This document shows positions 53,981 to 63,348 of a stretch of DNA of 64,000 bases, piece after piece. Numbering within the stretch: position 1 is the first letter of the stretch; each line of letters opens with the position of its first letter. Below the pieces are notes generated by a model. That model did no database searches. It saw nothing but the letters and a program-made list of their open reading frames with translations, and was not told the origin of the DNA. Source of the DNA: an uncultured Ignavibacteriales bacterium (GTDB lineage: Bacteria > Bacteroidota > Ignavibacteria > Tepidaquicellales > OLB5); contig CAYWTS010000007.1 in assembly GCA_964461265.1 (NCBI GenBank), forward strand, positions 10,906 through 74,905, given 5' to 3'. The position numbers and the translations under genes are program-made.

Positions 53981-54466
53981 ATGAATGAAATTGTTTCTAA
54001 ACTCAGGGAAAGATTAAGTGTAACAAACGGTTATAATTTCGTAACGCATTCAGAAATCCAAGAATACCCTTCGATAGAAATTCCCAAAGAAAGACTGCTT
54101 GAAATCTCAAAAATCCTTAAGGAGGAACTTGGTTTTATTCTGCTTATTGATATAGTTGGTGTTGACCGCTTCACAAAAGATTACAGGTTTGAATGTATTT
54201 ACAATCTATGGAATGAAACTGAAAAGCAAAGACTTTTTATCAGGGTAAAACTTGACTCTGCAAAACCAGAAGTGGAATCAGTAACCCCTCTCTGGCCGGG
54301 TGCAAACTGGATGGAAAGAGAAGCTTTTGATATGTTCGGAATAAATTTTCTTAACCATCCCGATTTGCGAAGAATTTACATGATACAAGATTATAAATAT
54401 TATCCTTTAAGAAAAGATTATCCTTTAATGGGAATTCCGGGAGCCTCGGAACTGCCAAAGAAATAA
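53981..54466 (+). CDS. nuoC: NADH-quinone oxidoreductase subunit C
   Basis: FECIYNLW...LFIRVKL...W.GANWMEREAFDMFGI.F..HPDLRRI motifs. Confidence 0.87.
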   Translation: MNEIVSKLRERLSVTNGYNFVTHSEIQEYPSIEIPKERLLEISKILKEELGFILLIDIVGVDRFTKDYRFECIYNLWNETEKQRLFIRVKLDSAKPEVESVTPLWPGANWMEREAFDMFGINFLNHPDLRRIYMIQDYKYYPLRKDYPLMGIPGASELPKK

Positions 54467-55749
54467 TGGACAAAAACATAATAGATACTATATTAGAAGT
54501 GAATAAAACTCATGGCAGGTTTAATGAGATACTCAAAGCACTTGAAACTGAGGACGTAAGAGCTTATTTCGATGAAGCATTAGACAACCAGTTAGTGCTT
54601 AATATGGGTCCGTCACATCCTGCTACACACGGAGTGCTCAGAGTTGTGATAAGCCTTGACGGTGAAATGGTTGTAAAAGCTGTCCCAGATATAGGCTACC
54701 TGCACAGGGGTTATGAAAAGCTTGCAGAAAACATGACATTTCATGAATTCATTCCCCACACCGACAGGCTCGATTATCTTTCTACGGTTGCTAATAACGT
54801 CGGATATATCCTGGCAGTGGAAAAACTCTTAGAAATAGAAACTACTCCTCGGACAAAATATATCAGAACAATCTGCTGCGAGCTTGCAAGAATTTCTTCC
54901 CATCTTGTTTGGATGGGAAGTATGGCAATGGATGTTGGAGCATTAACAGTTTTTTTATGGACATTCAGAGAAAGGGAAAAAATACTTGATATACTCGATT
55001 TAATTACAGGAGCCAGGTTTACTACAAGTTTCACGCGTATCGGAAGCGTATGGAAAGATATCGATGACGAAGTAATTAAACGTACCAGGATTTTTCTGGA
55101 AGAATTTCCCGCTAACTTAAAAGAAAGCCAGGACCTCATAGAACGAAACCGGATCTTTATTAACCGCTGTGAAGGTGTCGGGTATATATCAAGAGAAGAC
55201 GCACTTGCCATTGGACTTACAGGTCCGAACCTTCGGGCTTGCGGAGTTGCAAGAGATTTACGAAAAGATGAACCCTATCTTATATACCCAGAACTCGATT
55301 TCGATGTTCCAACACTTCCTGAAGGTGACAGCCTTGCAAGGTATTACGTTCGTATCCGTGAATTCTACGAGTCGGTAAAAATATTAAATCAATGCCTAGA
55401 TAAGCTCCCCGATGGTCCTATTGATGCTCACGATACCCGTAATGTATTACCTAAGAAAGAAAAGATATATACTAAAATGGAAGAGTTAATAGACGATTTT
55501 ATGCTTGTTAACTTTGGTAATATCCCTGAAAAAGGCGCTGAATCTTATTTTGGATTCGAATCTTCCAAGGGCGAACTTGGTTTTTACTTTATAAGCAACG
55601 GTACAGGTTATCCCTACAGATTAAAAATACGTTCCCCTTCATTTGTTAATTTGCAGTCACTGCCCATTTTAACCAAAGGATGCCTGATATCGGATGTTGT
55701 TGCTATTATCGGCAGCATAGATCCGGTTATGGGTGAGGCAGATAAATAA
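54466..55749 (+). CDS. nuoD: NADH-quinone oxidoreductase subunit D
   Basis: LNMGPSHPATHGVLR, GYLHRGYEKL, RICCELARISSHL and the C-terminal DPVMGEADK. The start overlaps the nuoC stop (TAATG). Confidence 0.92.
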   Translation: MDKNIIDTILEVNKTHGRFNEILKALETEDVRAYFDEALDNQLVLNMGPSHPATHGVLRVVISLDGEMVVKAVPDIGYLHRGYEKLAENMTFHEFIPHTDRLDYLSTVANNVGYILAVEKLLEIETTPRTKYIRTICCELARISSHLVWMGSMAMDVGALTVFLWTFREREKILDILDLITGARFTTSFTRIGSVWKDIDDEVIKRTRIFLEEFPANLKESQDLIERNRIFINRCEGVGYISREDALAIGLTGPNLRACGVARDLRKDEPYLIYPELDFDVPTLPEGDSLARYYVRIREFYESVKILNQCLDKLPDGPIDAHDTRNVLPKKEKIYTKMEELIDDFMLVNFGNIPEKGAESYFGFESSKGELGFYFISNGTGYPYRLKIRSPSFVNLQSLPILTKGCLISDVVAIIGSIDPVMGEADK

Positions 55750-55765
55750 ATCTATGTTCACTTAA

Positions 55766-56248
55766 TTGATGGAAATAAAGTTTACAGAAGAAAATCTAAG
55801 GAAAATTGACGAAATTAAGTCACATTATCCTACTGCTGATTCAGCATTACTGCCTGTATTATGGCTTGCACAGGAACAGTTCGGATGGATTTCTCTTGAA
55901 GTGATGCAATACATAGGTGACCTGCTTAATATTCCCTATGAGCGTGTTTATGGTGTAGTGAGCTTTTATACGATGTTCAACAAAAAACCTGTCGGTAAAT
56001 ATCACCTGCAGGTCTGCACCAATGTTTCATGCATGCTGCGTGGCGCTTATGAAATACTGGAGCATATTTGTAAAAAGTTAAACATCTTAGTAGGTGAAAC
56101 AACACCTGATAAAAAATTTACAGTTACCGAAGCCGAATGTCTCGGCAGCTGCGGAACGGCACCGATGCTCCAGCTCAATAATTACTTTAAAGAAAACCTG
56201 ACCAAAGATAACATCGACAAATTACTTGAAGAACTTCATAAAAGCTAA
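55766..56248 (+). CDS. nuoE: NADH-quinone oxidoreductase subunit E (2Fe-2S)
   Basis: ALLPVLWLAQEQFGWI, Cys ligands in QVCTNVSCMLRG and CLGSCGTAPM. An ATG at 55769 is the likelier start. Confidence 0.87.
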   Translation: MMEIKFTEENLRKIDEIKSHYPTADSALLPVLWLAQEQFGWISLEVMQYIGDLLNIPYERVYGVVSFYTMFNKKPVGKYHLQVCTNVSCMLRGAYEILEHICKKLNILVGETTPDKKFTVTEAECLGSCGTAPMLQLNNYFKENLTKDNIDKLLEELHKS

Positions 56249-56259
56249 AAAATATTTCG

Positions 56260-57567
56260 TTGCATAAAATTATTTTAAAAGATATTCCTTCACTGCATAA
56301 GCTCGAAGTTTACCGTTCAAACGGAGGCTATGAAGCCCTAAAAAAGGCATTGAAAGAAATGAAACCTGAAGAAGTTACAGAAGAAGTAAAAAAATCAGGT
56401 TTACGCGGAAGGGGCGGTGCATGTTTCCCGACAGGACTGAAATGGTCATTCATGCCTAAGAATTCGGACAAACCAAAATACCTTTGCTGCAACGGAGATG
56501 AATCGGAGCCGGCAAGCTTTAAAGACCGGCAGATATTCGAATTTAATCCGCATGTATTTATTGAAGGTACCCTGCTCTCATGTTATGCAATGGGTATCAA
56601 AACAGCATACGTTTATATCAGAGGAGAATATTTCTACTGGCAGGAACTTCTTCAAAAAGCAATCGATGATGCTTACACAAATAACTTGATAGGCCAAAAT
56701 ATATTAAGAACAAATTTTTCTGCCGACATCTTTATACACCGCGGCGCCGGTGCTTACATCTGCGGAGAGGAAACTGCACTGATGAATTCGATAGAAGGAA
56801 AACGCGGTTACCCGCGTGTCAGGCCCCCCTTTCCTGCACACTACGGCTTATGGGGATGTCCTACCACAATAAACAATATAGAAACTATTTCAAATATACC
56901 GGCAATAATTGAAAATGGGGGTGAGTGGTACAGCAAGATAGGTGAACCGAAACACCCCGGAAATCTTTTGTATGGTGTTAGCGGGCATGTCAACAAACCG
57001 GGAGTTTATGAATTACCTTCCGGAACATTGCTCACCGATATCATATACAAATACGCAGGCGGTGTAACCGGTAACAAAAAAATCAAGATGGTAATCCCCG
57101 GTGGTTCGTCGATGCCGCCTATTCGGGGTGATGAAATCGAAGGATTAAAGATGGATAACGAAAGCCTTAAAACAGTAGGTTCAGCAATAGGAACAGCCGG
57201 AATAGTGGTTATGAATGAAGACACCGATATAGTAAAAGTCCTAAAGAGAATAACGCAATTTTATTACCATGAATCGTGTGGTCAATGCACACCCTGTCGT
57301 GAGGGTTGTGGCTGGATGTTGAAAATCTTAAACAGGATAGACAGCGGAAATGGCAGGTTAGAAGACATCGATTTACTTTCGGAGGTAGCCTGTAACATTG
57401 AAGGTAATACCATATGTGCTTTCGGTGAAGCGGCAGCCTGGCCCGTTAAATACACAATTCAAAAGTTTAGAAATGAATTTAGCGAAAAAATCACTAAAAA
57501 AGACATAAAGCTGCCTGAATTGAATAAAGTACACGCTTTAAAAACAACAACCGCAATAAGTAACTAA
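56260..57567 (+). CDS. nuoF: NADH-quinone oxidoreductase subunit F (FMN, 4Fe-4S)
   Basis: GLRGRGGACFPTGLKW, CNGDESEPASFKDR, GAGAYICGEETAL and ESCGQCTPCREG. Confidence 0.92.
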   Translation: MHKIILKDIPSLHKLEVYRSNGGYEALKKALKEMKPEEVTEEVKKSGLRGRGGACFPTGLKWSFMPKNSDKPKYLCCNGDESEPASFKDRQIFEFNPHVFIEGTLLSCYAMGIKTAYVYIRGEYFYWQELLQKAIDDAYTNNLIGQNILRTNFSADIFIHRGAGAYICGEETALMNSIEGKRGYPRVRPPFPAHYGLWGCPTTINNIETISNIPAIIENGGEWYSKIGEPKHPGNLLYGVSGHVNKPGVYELPSGTLLTDIIYKYAGGVTGNKKIKMVIPGGSSMPPIRGDEIEGLKMDNESLKTVGSAIGTAGIVVMNEDTDIVKVLKRITQFYYHESCGQCTPCREGCGWMLKILNRIDSGNGRLEDIDLLSEVACNIEGNTICAFGEAAAWPVKYTIQKFRNEFSEKITKKDIKLPELNKVHALKTTTAISN

Positions 57568-57763: not shown

Positions 57764-58990
57764 ATGGATCAAACCGCCTTAAACGTCACACAGGAAAAAC
57801 ATACAAGTGCTTCCTCTCAGTTATTTGGCAGCAACTTCAAAAAGGATAATCTCGAAAAGAGAATTCAGGAGTTAATGCGAGAATCGACTGAATACCATGA
57901 ATTAAAACAATATGTTATCGATAAAGGGGTTAAAAAAATACAGGATGAAGGGCTGCTTGGCCGTTTGAAACCTGCAATACCTTCTATTATCGGTTTAATC
58001 TTATCTTACTTTATTGATGTATCAAAAGTTCCTTTTTTAGGAAAAGTCGCTGAAAATCTTGCAAACTGGGTATTCCCGGGCGGTGTATCCTTAAATAAGG
58101 CAGTAGAACCGGTTTCATTATGGTGGCTTCCTGTAATAACTTACGCAGTCTTTATCCTGTGTTCGGAACTTTCGTATAGGAAACTATTAAAAGAAGTTAG
58201 TACTAAAGGAGTATCACAAGAAATCATTGAAAGAATCACAAACAGATATGCAACCATTGTGGACGGCATAGGTACCGCCTTACCTTTACTCGGTGCTGCT
58301 ATCCTGCTTATCAGTATAAAAGAAGGCCCAATTATATTTCTTGGATTCTCAGTTCCATTCGAAATTAAAGCTATAACTATTCTTGCAATCGCAAAACTCT
58401 TCGAAATAGTTTTTGATTCACAGGGTCTTAAGTTTGCAGAACTCCGCGAAGAACTGAATGACCTGGAAAAAGAATATTTCACCGAACGTGACGATATACA
58501 CCAGAGAGCAATTTTACAGCAGCTCCATGACGGATTTTCAAAAAGAGGCGCGGATTCAATGCCGCTTACCGAAAAGTTCTCGAAGGAAGAAGCACAGGAA
58601 ATTTACAATTCACTTCATAAAGCAGCTGAATTCAGTGAAGCCATTTCGAAAAATGTTGTGATAATGAGGAATGCGATAGTTGAAATGAGCAAAACAAATA
58701 TACACGATTCCGAGCTTCTCAAAGAATTACAAAATACATCACAATCACTTTCAACTGCACTCGCAGCTGCTTCACAAACAGCAGAGTATAGTGAGATTAT
58801 GAAAAGAAATCTTGAGGCAATGAGAAACTTAATTAATGAACTCGATAACATTAAATTCCCTGAAGACAAGATTCTAAAAGAATTACAGGTTACTGCTCAC
58901 ATGCTTACAGAAACTGCAAATTCGCTTAAGGATGCACAGGCAATAAAAGGACTAGATAACCTGGCTTATTTAGCCGGAAAAAGACAATAA
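57764..58990 (+). CDS. Uncharacterised polytopic inner-membrane protein with stator-like TM hairpin and duplicated coiled-coil tail
   Basis: GGAG lies 10 nt upstream of the ATG. Four predicted TM helices (about residues 70-87, 117-138, 163-186, 189-216). GTALPLLGAAIL and PFEIKAITILAIA motifs. C-terminal helical tail with a 52-aa duplication. Confidence 0.6.
   Translation: MDQTALNVTQEKHTSASSQLFGSNFKKDNLEKRIQELMRESTEYHELKQYVIDKGVKKIQDEGLLGRLKPAIPSIIGLILSYFIDVSKVPFLGKVAENLANWVFPGGVSLNKAVEPVSLWWLPVITYAVFILCSELSYRKLLKEVSTKGVSQEIIERITNRYATIVDGIGTALPLLGAAILLISIKEGPIIFLGFSVPFEIKAITILAIAKLFEIVFDSQGLKFAELREELNDLEKEYFTERDDIHQRAILQQLHDGFSKRGADSMPLTEKFSKEEAQEIYNSLHKAAEFSEAISKNVVIMRNAIVEMSKTNIHDSELLKELQNTSQSLSTALAAASQTAEYSEIMKRNLEAMRNLINELDNIKFPEDKILKELQVTAHMLTETANSLKDAQAIKGLDNLAYLAGKRQ
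58625..58936 (+). repeat. Tandem 156-nt (52-aa) intragenic duplication
   Basis: AEFSEAISKNVVIMRNAIVEMSKTNIHDSELLKELQNTSQSLS... aligns with AEYSEIMKRNLEAMRNLINELDNIKFPEDKILKELQVTAHMLT.... I counted 17 of 52 identical residues by hand. Confidence 0.7.
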
Positions 58991-59021: not shown

Positions 59022-59921
59022 ATGAAAAAACAGCGTGATGTAAAATTCATTATATATCAGTCACTCTACATTTTTGTAGTTTGTGTTGTAGCCATAAAAG
59101 GTGCTAACCTTGACCTTGTTCAGGTTATTGCAGATGACGGGACGCCGAAGGTTTTTCTTTCTCCTGATTCCTTACAAAAATTATATGAAACTATAAAGAA
59201 ATCAGTAATTGTTGATACAAGTATTTTTGTCATAGTTCCGAAAAAATTACTGGAGGAAAATGAGAAGCTAAGATTAATTGTTCAAAATATGCCTAAGATA
59301 GACCTGAGTTTATATACATTAAAATCCGAAATTAAACCTATCGAGGAAGAGAAGCTTAAGGAGGAGGAAAAAATAAATCCTACAGAGCCGACAGAAATAC
59401 GAATCGGGCAAATAAACCTTACACAATATACGGAAAATCCCTTATCAAATCCTTATGATGTCCCGCTCGAAATTGTAGGGATAACAACTATCCCGCCAAA
59501 GAGCACTAAAACTTTTGTAACAGGCGGGCAAAGCTCGGTAGTAATAAAAGTAGGTAACAGTTCCAAAACAGTAGAACTCAAACCTAATAGACAGCCTAAA
59601 ATAAACATGCAAAGGCTCGTCACAATGGGTGAAGAAGCCAGCGTATCGAACATGCAAAGAACGATTTGTTACAGAGTAACCATAGATGACGATTTCCCGG
59701 GACAGCTCGATGTTAAATTTGCAGGACCCATTACATTTAAACAAGCAGGTCCAACCACATTCGATGTTACCTTAAATGCATTCCCCAGTAAGACATCATT
59801 CGATAATTACACAGAAAACAAGGAAGCACCCTATTCGCTGGGTTTTACTGTAACGGTATCTGACAGGATTGCACCTCATAAAATAACTGGTCAAAACAGC
59901 TTTATTTTTGGAGATTGGTAA
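59022..59921 (+). CDS. Uncharacterised bitopic membrane protein (N-in single TM, beta-rich periplasmic domain)
   Basis: MKKQRDVKFIIYQSLYIFVVCVVAI TM anchor, an E/K-rich linker (EEEKLKEEEK), and a beta-strand-like C-terminal 170 aa. Confidence 0.6.
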   Translation: MKKQRDVKFIIYQSLYIFVVCVVAIKGANLDLVQVIADDGTPKVFLSPDSLQKLYETIKKSVIVDTSIFVIVPKKLLEENEKLRLIVQNMPKIDLSLYTLKSEIKPIEEEKLKEEEKINPTEPTEIRIGQINLTQYTENPLSNPYDVPLEIVGITTIPPKSTKTFVTGGQSSVVIKVGNSSKTVELKPNRQPKINMQRLVTMGEEASVSNMQRTICYRVTIDDDFPGQLDVKFAGPITFKQAGPTTFDVTLNAFPSKTSFDNYTENKEAPYSLGFTVTVSDRIAPHKITGQNSFIFGDW

Positions 59922-60002
59922 AATCACTATAATAATTATTGAAATAATAATGTAAAGGTAGTTTATTTGGTTCAGATGATTTTTAAAACAAATATTAAAA
60001 AA

Positions 60003-61268
60003 ATGAAAAATACTAAAAAAGCCATTTCTTTACTTCTGCTTTTGTTCACATTTGCATTAATATTCAATGCAAATAAGGTACTCGCTCAGCAAGAGGACCC
60101 GGAGAATCCGAGAACTTGGACTTATTTCAGGATTACTGCCAGTGCTGAAGATGACAGCATCTTTATAAAAATCCAGGACGATGTACTTATCGATCCAAAG
60201 ATGGATCGTTATACGATTGTCGTTAATATTAGTGATCCAAATACTCAAAACCAATATGTGGTATTCGGTGATGAGCTGGATCCCGGAGCCCAAAGGTTTG
60301 CCTGGTCACAGCTATCTAAACAGGTACAGGATGGATTAAAGAACTGGACAGGAACGAATAAAGAAAATTTAAACCAGAAAAAGCTTAATTATGCCAGCGT
60401 ATTCTTAGATGTAATTAAACAAATAAAGATCAAGGAATTCGTTGCACCTCCGAAGAGGGAAAGAATAATCCGTAATACAACGGCATACATTAACCCGTAC
60501 CTTACTTTATTCGGATGGGAACAGCTGGGAATTCCTATAAAAAGATCAATTGGTTTTACTTTTGGAACAGGCAGTAAATATTCCGGACCGTTTGAAAGCG
60601 ACGAAATAGGAATCGGATTCAATATGCTTGGTGTGTCGGTCCAATACGTAACCAGGATTCGTGAATTAAACACACACGACCTCGGTTCCGATAGCACCGA
60701 AAACAAACCGTGGAAACAATATAATGCCATATTTATGCCTCCCAGAGGCTTAAAACTGACTTACACAATTCCTCTGGGTAACTTCCTTGAAGTAGGTGTG
60801 TACAGTGAAATCAAAGAAACAGGTGTGCAACCGGGCGGCGGTCCGCCACTTTACACTTTCAGGAATCAAAAAGATTCTACTATTATGCCCAACAATATAG
60901 TTACAGGTACAAAGCTTATCGGTGAATTCAGGTATCCTTTTAGAATGTTCGGTTCAACAAGAACCCAGTTCTATGTAGGTTACTATATGGATGAGATAAA
61001 TATTGGCTTATTCACAAGAGAAAGCCGCCTAGTAGGTTCGGTGTTCGACTTCAGAGTGAATGCAACATTAAAAAAGATACGTAATTTCCAGCTACTTATA
61101 GAAATCATGGTTTCGAATATTGCGGAAGGTTTTGCCCTCAACTCTTTTGCAGTAGGACCTTCAATCAGGATTTCAAAACTTGATACAGGCAAATTCGGGC
61201 TTTTGTCTGCATTTCTTAATATCAGGTTTAAACTCGGCGATTACTTCGACGAGAGAGAGAAAAAATAA
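60003..61268 (+). CDS. Uncharacterised secreted protein, predicted outer-membrane beta-barrel
   Basis: Signal peptide MKNTKKAISLLLLLFTFALIFNANKVLAQ (the ORF is open from TTG 59967). The C-terminal half has alternating hydrophobic strands (GIGFNMLGVSVQYV, LKLTYTIPL, FYVGYYMDEINIGLF, VFDFRVNATL, LLSAFLNIRFKL). Confidence 0.5.
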   Translation: MKNTKKAISLLLLLFTFALIFNANKVLAQQEDPENPRTWTYFRITASAEDDSIFIKIQDDVLIDPKMDRYTIVVNISDPNTQNQYVVFGDELDPGAQRFAWSQLSKQVQDGLKNWTGTNKENLNQKKLNYASVFLDVIKQIKIKEFVAPPKRERIIRNTTAYINPYLTLFGWEQLGIPIKRSIGFTFGTGSKYSGPFESDEIGIGFNMLGVSVQYVTRIRELNTHDLGSDSTENKPWKQYNAIFMPPRGLKLTYTIPLGNFLEVGVYSEIKETGVQPGGGPPLYTFRNQKDSTIMPNNIVTGTKLIGEFRYPFRMFGSTRTQFYVGYYMDEINIGLFTRESRLVGSVFDFRVNATLKKIRNFQLLIEIMVSNIAEGFALNSFAVGPSIRISKLDTGKFGLLSAFLNIRFKLGDYFDEREKK

Positions 61269-61307: not shown

Positions 61308-61342
61308 AAATCCTGCAATTAGTGATAATTGCAGGATTTTTT
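61308..61342 (+). terminator. Strong Rho-independent terminator closing the three-gene operon
   Basis: AAATCCTGCAATT (61308-61320), loop agtgat, AATTGCAGGATTT (61327-61339). The T run extends to 61342. Confidence 0.85.
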
Positions 61343-61390: not shown

Positions 61391-62077
61391 TTGCCAACAG
61401 AAAAAGAATTAGAAGACCTTGTATATATTATATCTCATGATTTAAAGGAACCTTTAAGAATGATTAATTCATATATACAGCTTATCGCGAAAAAATATAT
61501 TACTACGCTAGATGGTGATGCAAAGGATTATTTTAACTACGTAATTGATGGAACAAAACGTTTGCAGATGATGATCGACGACCTTGCTTCATATTCGAAA
61601 ATTCTTAGAAATGACTACAAATATGAAGTTGTCGATTTGAATACCATTGCAAATAAGGTTAAAGAAACTGTTATTAAACTTCATAAAGACGTTAACTTAG
61701 TAATTAATATAGAAAAATTACCAAGTTGCTATTGCTACCCTGATTTATTTGAAATATTATTAATGCATTTAATAAATAATGCTCTAAAATTTAATTCAAA
61801 TACACCCTGTGTAAATATCCGTTGTGTTAAAAAACGTTCAAAACTCACTTTTGAAATCGAAGATAACGGAATTGGAATCGATGGTCAATTTTATAAAGAA
61901 ATATTCAGGGTATTTAGAAAATTACATACAAATAAAGAATATCCCGGTTCAGGAATAGGTCTGGCAATTTGTAAAAAAATCGTTGAAAAACATGGTGGAA
62001 AAATATGGTTTACAAGTTCTAAAACAAAAGGTACAATTTTCTTTTTTACATTAATGAATAATAAACATATTAATTAA
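61391..62077 (+). CDS. Sensor-less histidine kinase (HisKA + HATPase_c only)
   Basis: H-box ISHDLKEPLRMI about 10 residues from the N-terminus. N-box LINNALKF. G-boxes EDNGIGI and GSGIGLAICKKIVEKHGG. No TM or sensor domain. TTG start. Confidence 0.75.
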   Translation: MPTEKELEDLVYIISHDLKEPLRMINSYIQLIAKKYITTLDGDAKDYFNYVIDGTKRLQMMIDDLASYSKILRNDYKYEVVDLNTIANKVKETVIKLHKDVNLVINIEKLPSCYCYPDLFEILLMHLINNALKFNSNTPCVNIRCVKKRSKLTFEIEDNGIGIDGQFYKEIFRVFRKLHTNKEYPGSGIGLAICKKIVEKHGGKIWFTSSKTKGTIFFFTLMNNKHIN

Positions 62078-62235
62078 CTATTTATTAGTAATTTTTAACT
62101 ATTTACGTTAATTGACATTATTACATAAATTAGTATACTAAACTAGGGATTTGTATTAAACCGTTAATTTATTTATCTTTATATATCTTGATTTTAACTA
62201 ATTCATTAATTTAAGTTTAATATTAGTAGTAATTT

Positions 62236-63348
62236 TTGACAGAACCGGCAATCAAATACGCTGACAAACTCAAACTTATCAACATTTTACTTATTGAAGA
62301 TAATCCGGGCGATGCCAGGTTAATTAATGAGTATTTAACCGACTCGAAACACATTAATTTTAACCTGACCGTAGCTGAACGCTTATCTAAAGGAATAGAA
62401 TACATCGAAAATGAATTGATTGATGTAATACTGCTCGATTTAAAACTCCCGGATTGTGAAGGACTAACCACATTCGTTAAAACATCTGAAATTGCACCGA
62501 GTATACCGATAATAGTTTTAACGGGATTAGATGATGAAACAACTGCTGTATCGGCAGTAAAAATGGGAGCACAGGACTATCTTGTGAAAGATAAAGTTGA
62601 AGAAGAAATACTGGAAAGGTCAATAAGATATGCGATTGAAAGAAAACGTGCAGAAGAAGAACATCAAAAGCTGCTTGAACAAAGAATCAGGTCATTAGCT
62701 ATTATAGAAGCTCAGGAAAATGAAAGACGACGCATTTCAAGAGAACTGCACGATGGACTGGGGCAGCTGTTATCTGCGGCTAAGCTAAAGTTTGGTATGC
62801 TGGAACTTTTAAATAACCAGGATAGGGAAAGAGCATTAGAAATTATAAAAGATGTTGATGGAATAATAAGCAAATCAATTATAGAGGCAAGAAGAATAGC
62901 ACACGACCTGCGTCCTACAACTCTTGACGATTTTGGGCTTATACCTGCTCTTAGAATTCTATGTCAGGAGTTTGCTAAGCTTACAGGCATAAAGGCAAAA
63001 TTCCAGGTCTCACAACTTTTAGAAAGAATAGAACCTAAAGTCGAAATAGCTATATACAGGATTATCCAGGAATCATTTAATAATATCAGTAAATATGCTG
63101 AAGCCACCGAAGTTACACTAGACGTATACCGGAAAAATAACCTTGTCTATGTAAATGTAAAAGATAATGGTATAGGATTCGATATGGAAAGCATTAACAA
63201 GCAGAAAAAAGCCGGTAGAGGTTTCGGTCTATTAAACATGAAAGAGCGTGCAGAACTTGTTGGCGGCAGGATAGAAATTAACTCGGAACCGGGCAAAGGT
63301 ACCGAATTACTTTTGGAAATCAATTTAGATTTCTTCCATAATCCGTAA
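62236..63348 (+). CDS. Hybrid receiver-histidine kinase (REC + HisKA_3 + HATPase_c, NarX/DesK type)
   Basis: REC domain: ILLIEDNPGDARL...DVILLDLKLPD...IIVLTG...GAQDYLVK. HisKA_3 H-box RRISRELHDGLGQLLSA. HATPase: ESFNNISKYA, DNGIGF, GFGLLNMKERAELVGG. Confidence 0.82.
   Translation: MTEPAIKYADKLKLINILLIEDNPGDARLINEYLTDSKHINFNLTVAERLSKGIEYIENELIDVILLDLKLPDCEGLTTFVKTSEIAPSIPIIVLTGLDDETTAVSAVKMGAQDYLVKDKVEEEILERSIRYAIERKRAEEEHQKLLEQRIRSLAIIEAQENERRRISRELHDGLGQLLSAAKLKFGMLELLNNQDRERALEIIKDVDGIISKSIIEARRIAHDLRPTTLDDFGLIPALRILCQEFAKLTGIKAKFQVSQLLERIEPKVEIAIYRIIQESFNNISKYAEATEVTLDVYRKNNLVYVNVKDNGIGFDMESINKQKKAGRGFGLLNMKERAELVGGRIEINSEPGKGTELLLEINLDFFHNP

Follow-up and report, generated by a model that had tools for sequence, protein, structure and literature searches.

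A 64,000-nucleotide stretch of DNA from an uncultured Ignavibacteriales bacterium (assembly GCA_964461265.1, contig CAYWTS010000007.1, positions 10,906 to 74,905; the whole stretch is called the window below) encodes a cassette of three genes, the first two of which specify membrane proteins. This locus raises the question of whether the products of genes 1 and 2 are paired subunits of an ion-driven motor. Few families are known to turn inner-membrane ion flow into mechanical work, and the discoveries of Ton/Tol, GldLM and Zorya each opened a new area of envelope biology. An earlier note, made from the sequence alone, had proposed that the third and fourth transmembrane (TM) helices of gene 1 form a hairpin with stator-type motifs of the MotA/ExbB/GldL kind. 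The hairpin, its PLLG motif and its buried glutamate stand, whereas membership in one of these families is not supported. The reading favored here, with a probability of roughly 0.45 and so just short of even odds, is that the products of genes 1 and 2 make up a stator-like A/B complex, orphan in sequence, that would couple ion flow to an outer-envelope partner. The data establish the hairpin with its conservation and topology, the obligate synteny of the three genes, and the concentration of conservation in the TM helices of both membrane proteins.

A conserved membrane core in genes 1 and 2

Gene 1 (57764-58990; all features lie on the + strand of the window) encodes a 408-residue inner-membrane protein, a candidate ‘A’ (stator-ring) subunit by analogy, and was delineated from its open reading frame (ORF), hydropathy, AlphaFold2 models and homologues. 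The protein has a cytoplasmic N-terminus, four TM helices and a cytoplasmic, helical C-terminal domain of ∼190 residues. Hydropathy analysis reveals four hydrophobic segments; by the positive-inside rule, the cytoplasmic parts are the K/R-rich N-terminus, the linker between TM2 and TM3, and the C-terminal domain. The AlphaFold2 model of the whole protein is mediocre (predicted local distance difference test, pLDDT, 64), the long helices of the cytoplasmic domain being of low confidence. Because this model was too uncertain and its fold search was contaminated by long-helix proteins, the membrane domain was modeled separately. The resulting model covers residues 25-265, rests on an alignment of 38 sequences, distant family members included, and is confident (pLDDT 83.6, predicted TM-score 0.72).

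In both hydropathy and model, TM3 (residues ∼167-187) and TM4 (∼189-212) form a helical hairpin with a tight turn at G188, as the earlier note had read from the sequence. The flagged peptide, ATIVDGIGTALPLLGAAILLISIKEGPIIFLGFSVPFEIKAITILAIAKLFEIVFDS, corresponds to gene 1 residues 163-219 and is encoded by positions 58250-58420; the start previously assigned to it, 58251, was one base late and out of frame. TM3 (58262-58324, residues 167-187, DGIGTALPLLGAAILLISIKE; model helix 152-187) bears D167 at its cytoplasmic end, followed by a G170-x3-P174-x2-G177 motif (GTALPLLG, residues 170-177, 58271-58294) that was defined by conservation and by its profile register on TolQ. TM4 (58328-58399, residues 189-212, PIIFLGFSVPFEIKAITILAIAKL) contains P198, E200, K202 and K211, and runs on as model helix 189-264 into a long cytoplasmic helix. 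E200 (codon 58361-58363), the glutamate of the PFEIK sequence that had been placed within the membrane by inspection, is near-invariant and lies mid-membrane in the confident model: E200 and K202 sit ∼11-13 residues below the periplasmic turn, hence level with P174-G177 of TM3. Among distant members, the only length variation in the hairpin region is an insertion between G188 and F192, which fits a periplasmic loop at the turn.

Conservation was counted in 33 diverse members of the gene 1 family, with identities down to ∼20%. Mean column entropy is 1.0-1.2 bits in TM3/TM4 versus 2.2-2.3 bits in TM1/TM2, while the cytoplasmic domain, at 2.4 bits, is the least conserved part. In TM3, L182 is invariant (33/33), P174, G177 and A178 are each kept in 32 members, and D167 and G170 in 30. 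In TM4, F192 and P198 are invariant (33/33), K202 and K211 are present in 29 of the 33, and E200 is kept in 32, being replaced by His in a single degenerate member (P0145). L175, A179, F199, L207 and D218 are near-invariant as well. The TM3-TM4 hairpin is the conserved core of the family. Loss of the Glu or of the PLLG motif among orthologues had been named as a ground for abandoning the stator proposal; as both are almost invariant in orthologues and distant paralogues alike, that ground falls away.

The remaining parts of gene 1 are more variable. TM1 (57950-58012, residues 63-83, a model helix over the same residues) is a weakly conserved outer helix (entropy 2.30 bits), and TM2 (58124-58186, residues 121-141, model helix 121-147) is likewise weakly conserved except at P123 and F130. 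The model adds a cytoplasmic helix (residues 26-61) and a short periplasmic helix (residues 90-103). The cytoplasmic C-terminal domain (58400-58987, residues 213-408) opens directly after TM4 with an LFE(x)VFD motif and closes with a conserved tail, KDxxAxKxLDNLxYLAGKR (58928-58984), which recurs in short paralogues. The domain is modular, with an internal duplication (NNIKLPEExxLKELQxTxxxLxETxNxxKDxxAxKxLDNL) in some orthologues (P0086, P0088 and P0068), and its extreme tail is kept as KDxxxxKxLxxLxxxxGK even in the short paralogues.

A word-indexed search returned 645 homologues of gene 1, and the lineage-bearing names among those listed are all Ignavibacteria/Ignavibacteriae. Relatives were found in 290 of ∼185,000 species genomes, in a collection holding one genome per species; the best 80 of these 290 are Ignavibacteria-type metagenome-assembled genomes (Ignavibacteria, Ignavibacteriota, Kapaibacterium), several of them deposited as Bacteroidetes/Bacteroidota or Chlorobi and one as ‘bacterium’. 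Many homologues are annotated as ‘methyl-accepting chemotaxis protein’ (MCP) by the Joint Genome Institute (JGI), a name that appears to come from coiled-coil composition, since no MCP signaling or HAMP domain is detectable.

Gene 2 (59022-59921), defined from its ORF and synteny, encodes a 299-residue single-pass protein, a candidate ‘B’ (axle) subunit by the same analogy. A short, basic cytoplasmic N-terminus is followed by one TM helix, a charged linker and a periplasmic domain of ∼170 residues. The TM helix with its flanks (59034-59126, residues 5-35, RDVKFIIYQSLYIFVVCVVAIKGANLDLVQV) is the most conserved part of the protein, with a peak at residues 6-30 that exceeds all others by far and a consensus of (R/K)-D-V-K-F-I-I-Y-Q-x-L-Y-I-F-V...K-G-A-N-L-D-L. 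In a set of 23 diverse orthologues, nine residues do not vary (D6, K8, F9, Y12, Q13, L15, Y16, K26 and G27); the nine are also nearly invariant across 66 orthologues and kept in remote or paralogous copies. Conservation of this helix, which carries the polar residues Tyr, Gln and Tyr, goes far beyond the needs of an anchor. The charged and polar residues conserved within the membrane are E200, K202 and K211 in gene 1 and Y12, Q13 and Y16 in gene 2. D6 sits at the cytoplasmic boundary, between the basic residues R5 and K8. Residues 123-192 of gene 2 (59388-59597) give a borderline profile match over 70 residues to transferrin-binding protein B (PDB 3pqu and 4o3w, E 2.4e-4), which may reflect a shared beta-rich, handle-like fold, or else chance.

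Gene 3 (59967-61268) completes the cassette with a 433-residue protein bearing an N-terminal signal peptide (59967-60110), predicted to be cleaved after VLA and before QQ (VLA, then QQEDP), and its product is inferred to be a periplasmic or outer-membrane partner. Cleavage there would leave an N-terminal Gln, matching the ‘Q-rule’ pattern of Bacteroidetes signal peptidase I substrates (PMC5837995). The genes are closely spaced, with 31 nt between genes 1 and 2 and 45 nt between genes 2 and 3. In every Ignavibacteria locus long enough to show it (69/69), genes 1, 2 and 3 follow one another in this order. No terminator-like site lies between the three genes, and the unit is closed by a terminator-like hairpin (61308-61339) with a perfect 14-bp stem followed by a T-run, 40 nt past the gene 3 stop and readable on both strands. 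As a Pfam scan finds no ATPase in the cassette and the terminator follows gene 3, the cassette contains no other energy source.

Likeness to and distance from known stators

A series of results weighs against a stator-like reading. Pfam, NCBIfam and PADLOC scans assign no family to genes 1, 2 or 3. The MotA/ExbB domain PF01618, which the earlier note had named as the family to compare, is matched neither by gene 1 nor by 32 diverse members of its family, even at E ≤ 10. No stator chain is matched among PDB sequences, either by single gene 1 sequences or by family profiles, again even at E ≤ 10. An exhaustive profile search with the membrane domain, over 1.84 billion representative proteins, returned only 64 at E ≤ 0.001; these are read here as members of the gene 1 family, which would make that family small and closed, and they are far fewer than would be expected had the large MotA/ExbB superfamily been picked up.

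Profile-profile comparison with hhalign gives gene 1 a probability of 3.9% against a shallow MotA/ExbB/TolQ reference (P 0.011, score 21.1, 24 columns). Of the five residues invariant in that reference (TolQ P138, G141, G148, T178 and G181), gene 1 keeps equivalents of P138 and G141 only; the positions of G148, T178 and G181 are occupied by S/T184, a variable residue 205 (L/F/I/V/T) and A208, so that the invariant Thr and Gly of the last MotA/PomA helix are absent. In the partner, the Asp of MotB, ExbD and TolR lies inside the helix, whereas D6 of gene 2 is at the membrane boundary. Structurally, the matches of the membrane-domain model to stator chains fall short of significance (E 0.27-1.8, TM-scores 0.2-0.3), and Foldseek returns no match at E ≤ 0.001.

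The profile comparisons are to be read against the depth of their references. The A-subunit reference comprised 20 sequences (TolQ, ExbB and MotA of E. coli, 14 from plasmids or chromids, and three TolQ orthologues), the partner reference 12 (TolR, ExbD and MotB of E. coli and plasmid or chromid records), and the gliding reference 59 sequences of GldL and 45 of GldM, drawn from metagenomic gld loci. With TolQ/ExbB/MotA or GldL as seed, protein searches returned close relatives only (82-100% and 89-97% identity, respectively), and nothing less than 80% identical to Flavobacterium GldL came from a metagenome scan for GldL. A scan of viral contigs for MotA/ExbB found none, a three-sequence template gave no match, and no MotA/ExbB-like ORF is present in the 64-kb window or in 84 Ignavibacteria loci. 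Since these alignments are shallow, the tests have less power than a full HHpred run would. In the positive control, MotA reached a probability of 83% against ExbB/TolQ (E 9e-6). GldL against MotA/ExbB gave only 0.2-1.2%, which shows that alignments of this depth fail to connect even accepted members of the structural class: GldLM is an accepted 5:2 motor without obvious sequence homology to MotAB (PMC9389320).

The weak MotA/ExbB/TolQ signal, although the best profile score obtained for gene 1, lies slightly above chance while remaining far from significant. Against a segment-shuffle null of 12.9 ± 2.5, the score of 21.1 was reached in two of 150 shuffles. The alignment sets IGTALPLLG on VGSISPYIG of TolQ, thereby pairing G170 with G134, P174 with P138 and G177 with G141; P138 and G141 are kept in all 20 reference sequences and G134 in 14. 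The motifs that the earlier note had quoted were accurate for ExbB/TolQ (SPYIGLFGTVWG, APFVGLFGTVWG and APMLGLLGTVTG in the real sequences) as well as for GldL (YGMGAAVVIVGALFKITHFEIGP). P174 also aligns with the position of a conserved proline, P173 of MotA.

The proposed line-up with the first helix of GldL fares worse. hhalign does reproduce it, pairing E200 with GldL E49, LFE(x)VFD with AFEPVED, and GP with GP, and E49 is the invariant glutamate of the GldL hairpin (PMC8986121). However, the comparison yields a probability of 0.3% and a score of 15.4 against a null of 13.8 ± 3.0, and an equal or higher score occurs in 36 of 150 shuffles, which is chance level. PF22827 is matched neither by gene 1 nor by the 32 diverse members, and the NCBIfam PorL/GldL models are not matched by gene 1, even at E ≤ 10; true GldL proteins do carry PF22827. 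Gene 2 gives no hhalign signal against ExbD, TolR, MotB or GldM profiles (0.2-0.6% against GldM), and Pfam scans of gene 2 and of 23 orthologues find no family. Gene 3 is equally an orphan, without a Pfam match in the 23 members scanned or a PDB match of its own. The earlier note had named a lack of significant HHpred probability to the MotA/ExbB/GldL families as grounds for refutation, and with the reference alignments assembled here that is the outcome. On sequence grounds, membership of gene 1 in the MotA/ExbB/TolQ or the GldL family is not supported.

Fold comparison points in one direction, if below significance. Among the 50 best PDB matches of the membrane-domain model, ∼42 are PomA, MotA, TolQ or ExbB chains, aligned over ∼200-238 columns, and GldL does not appear in these top 50. 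The whole-length model shows a similar stator trend, mixed with chemoreceptor and BAR-domain long-helix proteins.

The design of the cassette also parallels known stators. As in MotA/PomA, gene 1 has an internal N-terminus, four TM helices and a cytoplasmic C-terminus, with the conserved hairpin formed by the last two helices and a G-x3-P-x2-G motif in the third, and the next gene downstream specifies a single-pass partner; the best fold matches include PomA and MotA chains. Unlike MotA/PomA, gene 1 shows no detectable sequence homology, carries a C-terminal helical domain of ∼190 residues, and has a TM2-TM3 cytoplasmic loop of ∼25 residues where MotA/PomA have ∼100, and so has no torque-generating interface. 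Gene 2 lacks the OmpA-type peptidoglycan-binding domain of MotB/PomB.

With ExbB/TolQ, gene 1 shares an APxxGxxG-like motif in the helix before the last and a mid-membrane glutamate in the last helix. TolQ E173 is at a place similar to that of E200 (the E173 column holds Glu in 11/20 reference sequences), as is E176 of ExbB. Neither kind of system includes an ATPase, and in each a third gene specifies an envelope-spanning or outer partner. ExbB and TolQ differ in having three TM helices with the N-terminus outside, versus four with the N-terminus inside in gene 1, and genes 2 and 3 show no similarity to ExbD/TolR or TonB/TolA.

GldL and PorL likewise combine a hairpin bearing an invariant Glu in its second helix with a following cytoplasmic domain, and gene 2, like GldM/PorM, has a periplasmic domain. 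By eye only, the K8...Y16 spacing of gene 2 equals that of R9...Y17 in GldM, eight residues (bioRxiv 10.1101/2020.05.11.089193). The GldLM host lineage is related, and GldLM too is undetectable from MotAB by sequence. However, GldL and PorL have two TM helices with the hairpin at the N-terminus, whereas the hairpin of gene 1 is the second half of a four-helix domain; gene 2 has 299 residues and GldM 513; and none of the GldL, GldM, GldN or PorK Pfam domains occurs in genes 1-3.

ZorA-ZorB offers a further parallel: there, too, a hairpin protein of the membrane, whose long cytoplasmic tail is helical, has a single-pass partner. A Zorya assignment was rejected: there is no PADLOC match to ZorA or ZorB and there are no ZorC- or ZorD-like genes, and the cassette is a conserved chromosomal locus across the whole class, not a defense island.

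A possible ion-driven transducer and its rivals

On the favored reading, genes 1 and 2 would be the two subunits of an inner-membrane transducer driven by the ion-motive force and built on the MotAB/ExbBD/GldLM plan. Copies of gene 1, five by analogy, would form a ring whose inner wall is the conserved TM3-TM4 hairpin, enclosing a gene 2 dimer at its nearly invariant TM helices. Protons or Na+ may move along the interface of the two proteins, with E200 and K202 of gene 1 and Y12, Q13 and Y16 of gene 2 as candidate path residues mid-membrane, and D167, K211 and D218 of gene 1 and D6 and K8 of gene 2 as candidates at the cytoplasmic face. Ion passage would produce relative movement of the gene 1 and gene 2 subunits, which the periplasmic domain of gene 2 could relay outward to the secreted product of gene 3 at the outer envelope, while the cytoplasmic C-terminal domain of gene 1 and its tail might serve as a regulatory or partner-binding module. 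The oligomeric state, ion conduction, rotation, the envelope location of gene 3, any work done on it and the cellular process served are inferences from this plan.

Support for the parallel comes from the combination of a conserved A-type hairpin, an adjacent B-type helix, a periplasmic domain, a secreted third component and the lack of an ATPase. The TM-centered conservation of genes 1 and 2, as measured in these two families, matches the inner-ring and axle organization of solved 5:2 motors. A further step, tentative and on balance rather doubtful, is to regard the cassette as an unrecognized family of ring-and-axle (5:2-type) motors beside MotAB/PomAB, ExbBD/TolQR, GldLM and ZorAB, energizing an outer-envelope process through gene 3. 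Such a family would join a MotA-like four-helix topology with a GldL-like hairpin Glu and cytoplasmic tail.

An unlikely alternative that still deserves weight is that genes 1 and 2 form a static scaffold or a receptor-like signaling complex, with gene 1 as a dimeric four-TM protein with a cytoplasmic coiled coil, and with the Glu and Lys of the hairpin serving helix packing or the recognition of a ligand or partner rather than ion flow. The long cytoplasmic helical domain would suit such a role, and so would the receptor-like JGI label and the chemoreceptor and BAR-domain proteins among the weak fold matches of the whole-length model; gene 1 has no significant homology to any motor family, and two histidine-kinase genes lie just downstream in the window. 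Yet no MCPsignal, HAMP or other signaling domain is found in gene 1 even at E ≤ 10, those kinases are not conserved neighbors, and the matches of the membrane domain are almost purely stator subunits. The cytoplasmic domain is moreover the least and the buried hairpin the most conserved part, and a passive anchor would not usually have an invariant mid-membrane Glu and Lys together with a partner helix that keeps Tyr, Gln and Tyr. A role for gene 1 as a chemoreceptor proper was rejected, as it lacks a signaling domain.

It is improbable that gene 1 is instead a non-motor channel or transporter, for ions or small solutes or as part of an export system, with gene 2 as periplasmic adaptor and gene 3 as outer-membrane exit. 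The charged residues in mid-membrane and the succession of inner-membrane, periplasm-spanning and secreted components, as in tripartite export systems, are compatible with this idea. So are weak, sub-threshold matches to the TM helices of mechanosensitive channels and PTS-IIC, but these are isolated (one or two of 32 members, E above 0.02). Four TM helices with one conserved hairpin are small for a transporter, no ATPase, RND, MFS or membrane-fusion-protein domains are present, and the fold matches favor stator subunits.

Ignavibacteria are grouped with Bacteroidota in the FCB group, and this relationship speaks for a specific sub-case of the stator model, a very divergent type IX secretion or gliding motor core (gene 1 as PorL/GldL, gene 2 as PorM/GldM, gene 3 as PorN/K). 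This is very unlikely: the related hosts, at least one of which encodes a Por_Secre_tail protein (type IX C-terminal sorting domain) near the cassette, the gene order of L-like, M-like and secreted protein, the hairpin-then-cytoplasmic-domain layout, the E200/E49 pairing and the eight-residue K8/Y16 spacing are outweighed by the chance-level alignment, the missing Pfam domains, the four TM helices, the short gene 2 and the absence of GldL from the best fold matches.

Returning to the stator-like A/B complex, its likely kind, an A/B ion-driven transducer, is already known, while the family itself is undescribed, given that no curated family covers the three proteins and that no paper linking Ignavibacteria with GldL, PorL or PorM was found in the literature searched. 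A phylogenomic survey of MotAB homologues published in 2025 takes sequence-detectable relatives as its point of departure and contains no mention of Ignavibacteria (PMC12505986). If the complex is a motor, it would provide a compact new system in which to study motor construction, could inform the relation between MotA-type and GldL-type stators, and would point to an energized envelope function in a phylum that has received little study. Should it prove otherwise, the cassette still represents an undescribed, strongly conserved membrane complex of Ignavibacteria that merits a family definition.

Genomic neighborhood and related cassettes

Upstream of the cassette, nuoC, nuoD, nuoE and nuoF are contiguous (53981-57567). 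The nuo cluster ends after nuoF, without nuoG, and is separated from the cassette by a 196-bp gap in which no terminator-like site was detected. Downstream, the two histidine-kinase genes (61391-63348) encode a 228-residue protein with a soluble HisKA + HATPase core and a 370-residue receiver-HisKA_3-HATPase hybrid; neither is a conserved neighbor of the cassette elsewhere. Other Ignavibacteria have different flanks, with phoH upstream and rsmB downstream. Membership of the cassette in the nuo operon was rejected, as this neighborhood is not conserved.

In some Ignavibacteria, the long cassette is followed directly downstream by a shorter, paralogous one (L061:5354-8016; L063, L070; L182:6786-9565). 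The shorter cassette comprises gene 1′ (∼227-265 residues), gene 2′ (∼135-141 residues) and two secreted proteins of ∼250-260 residues, and it retains the TM motifs GTALPLIGAA, VPFEIK and RDAKFLIFQSLYI..YKG. A remote branch (L181:5860-11446) holds the whole three-gene set, in which a 392-residue gene 1′′, with a periplasmic insert of ∼110 residues between TM1 and TM2, is followed by homologues of genes 2 and 3. The pairing of gene 1 with gene 2, with the same TM motifs, survives duplication and divergence. In the remote branch, gene 1′′ is preceded by a gene for a 698-residue secreted protein that matches the OmpA (PF00691) peptidoglycan-binding family.

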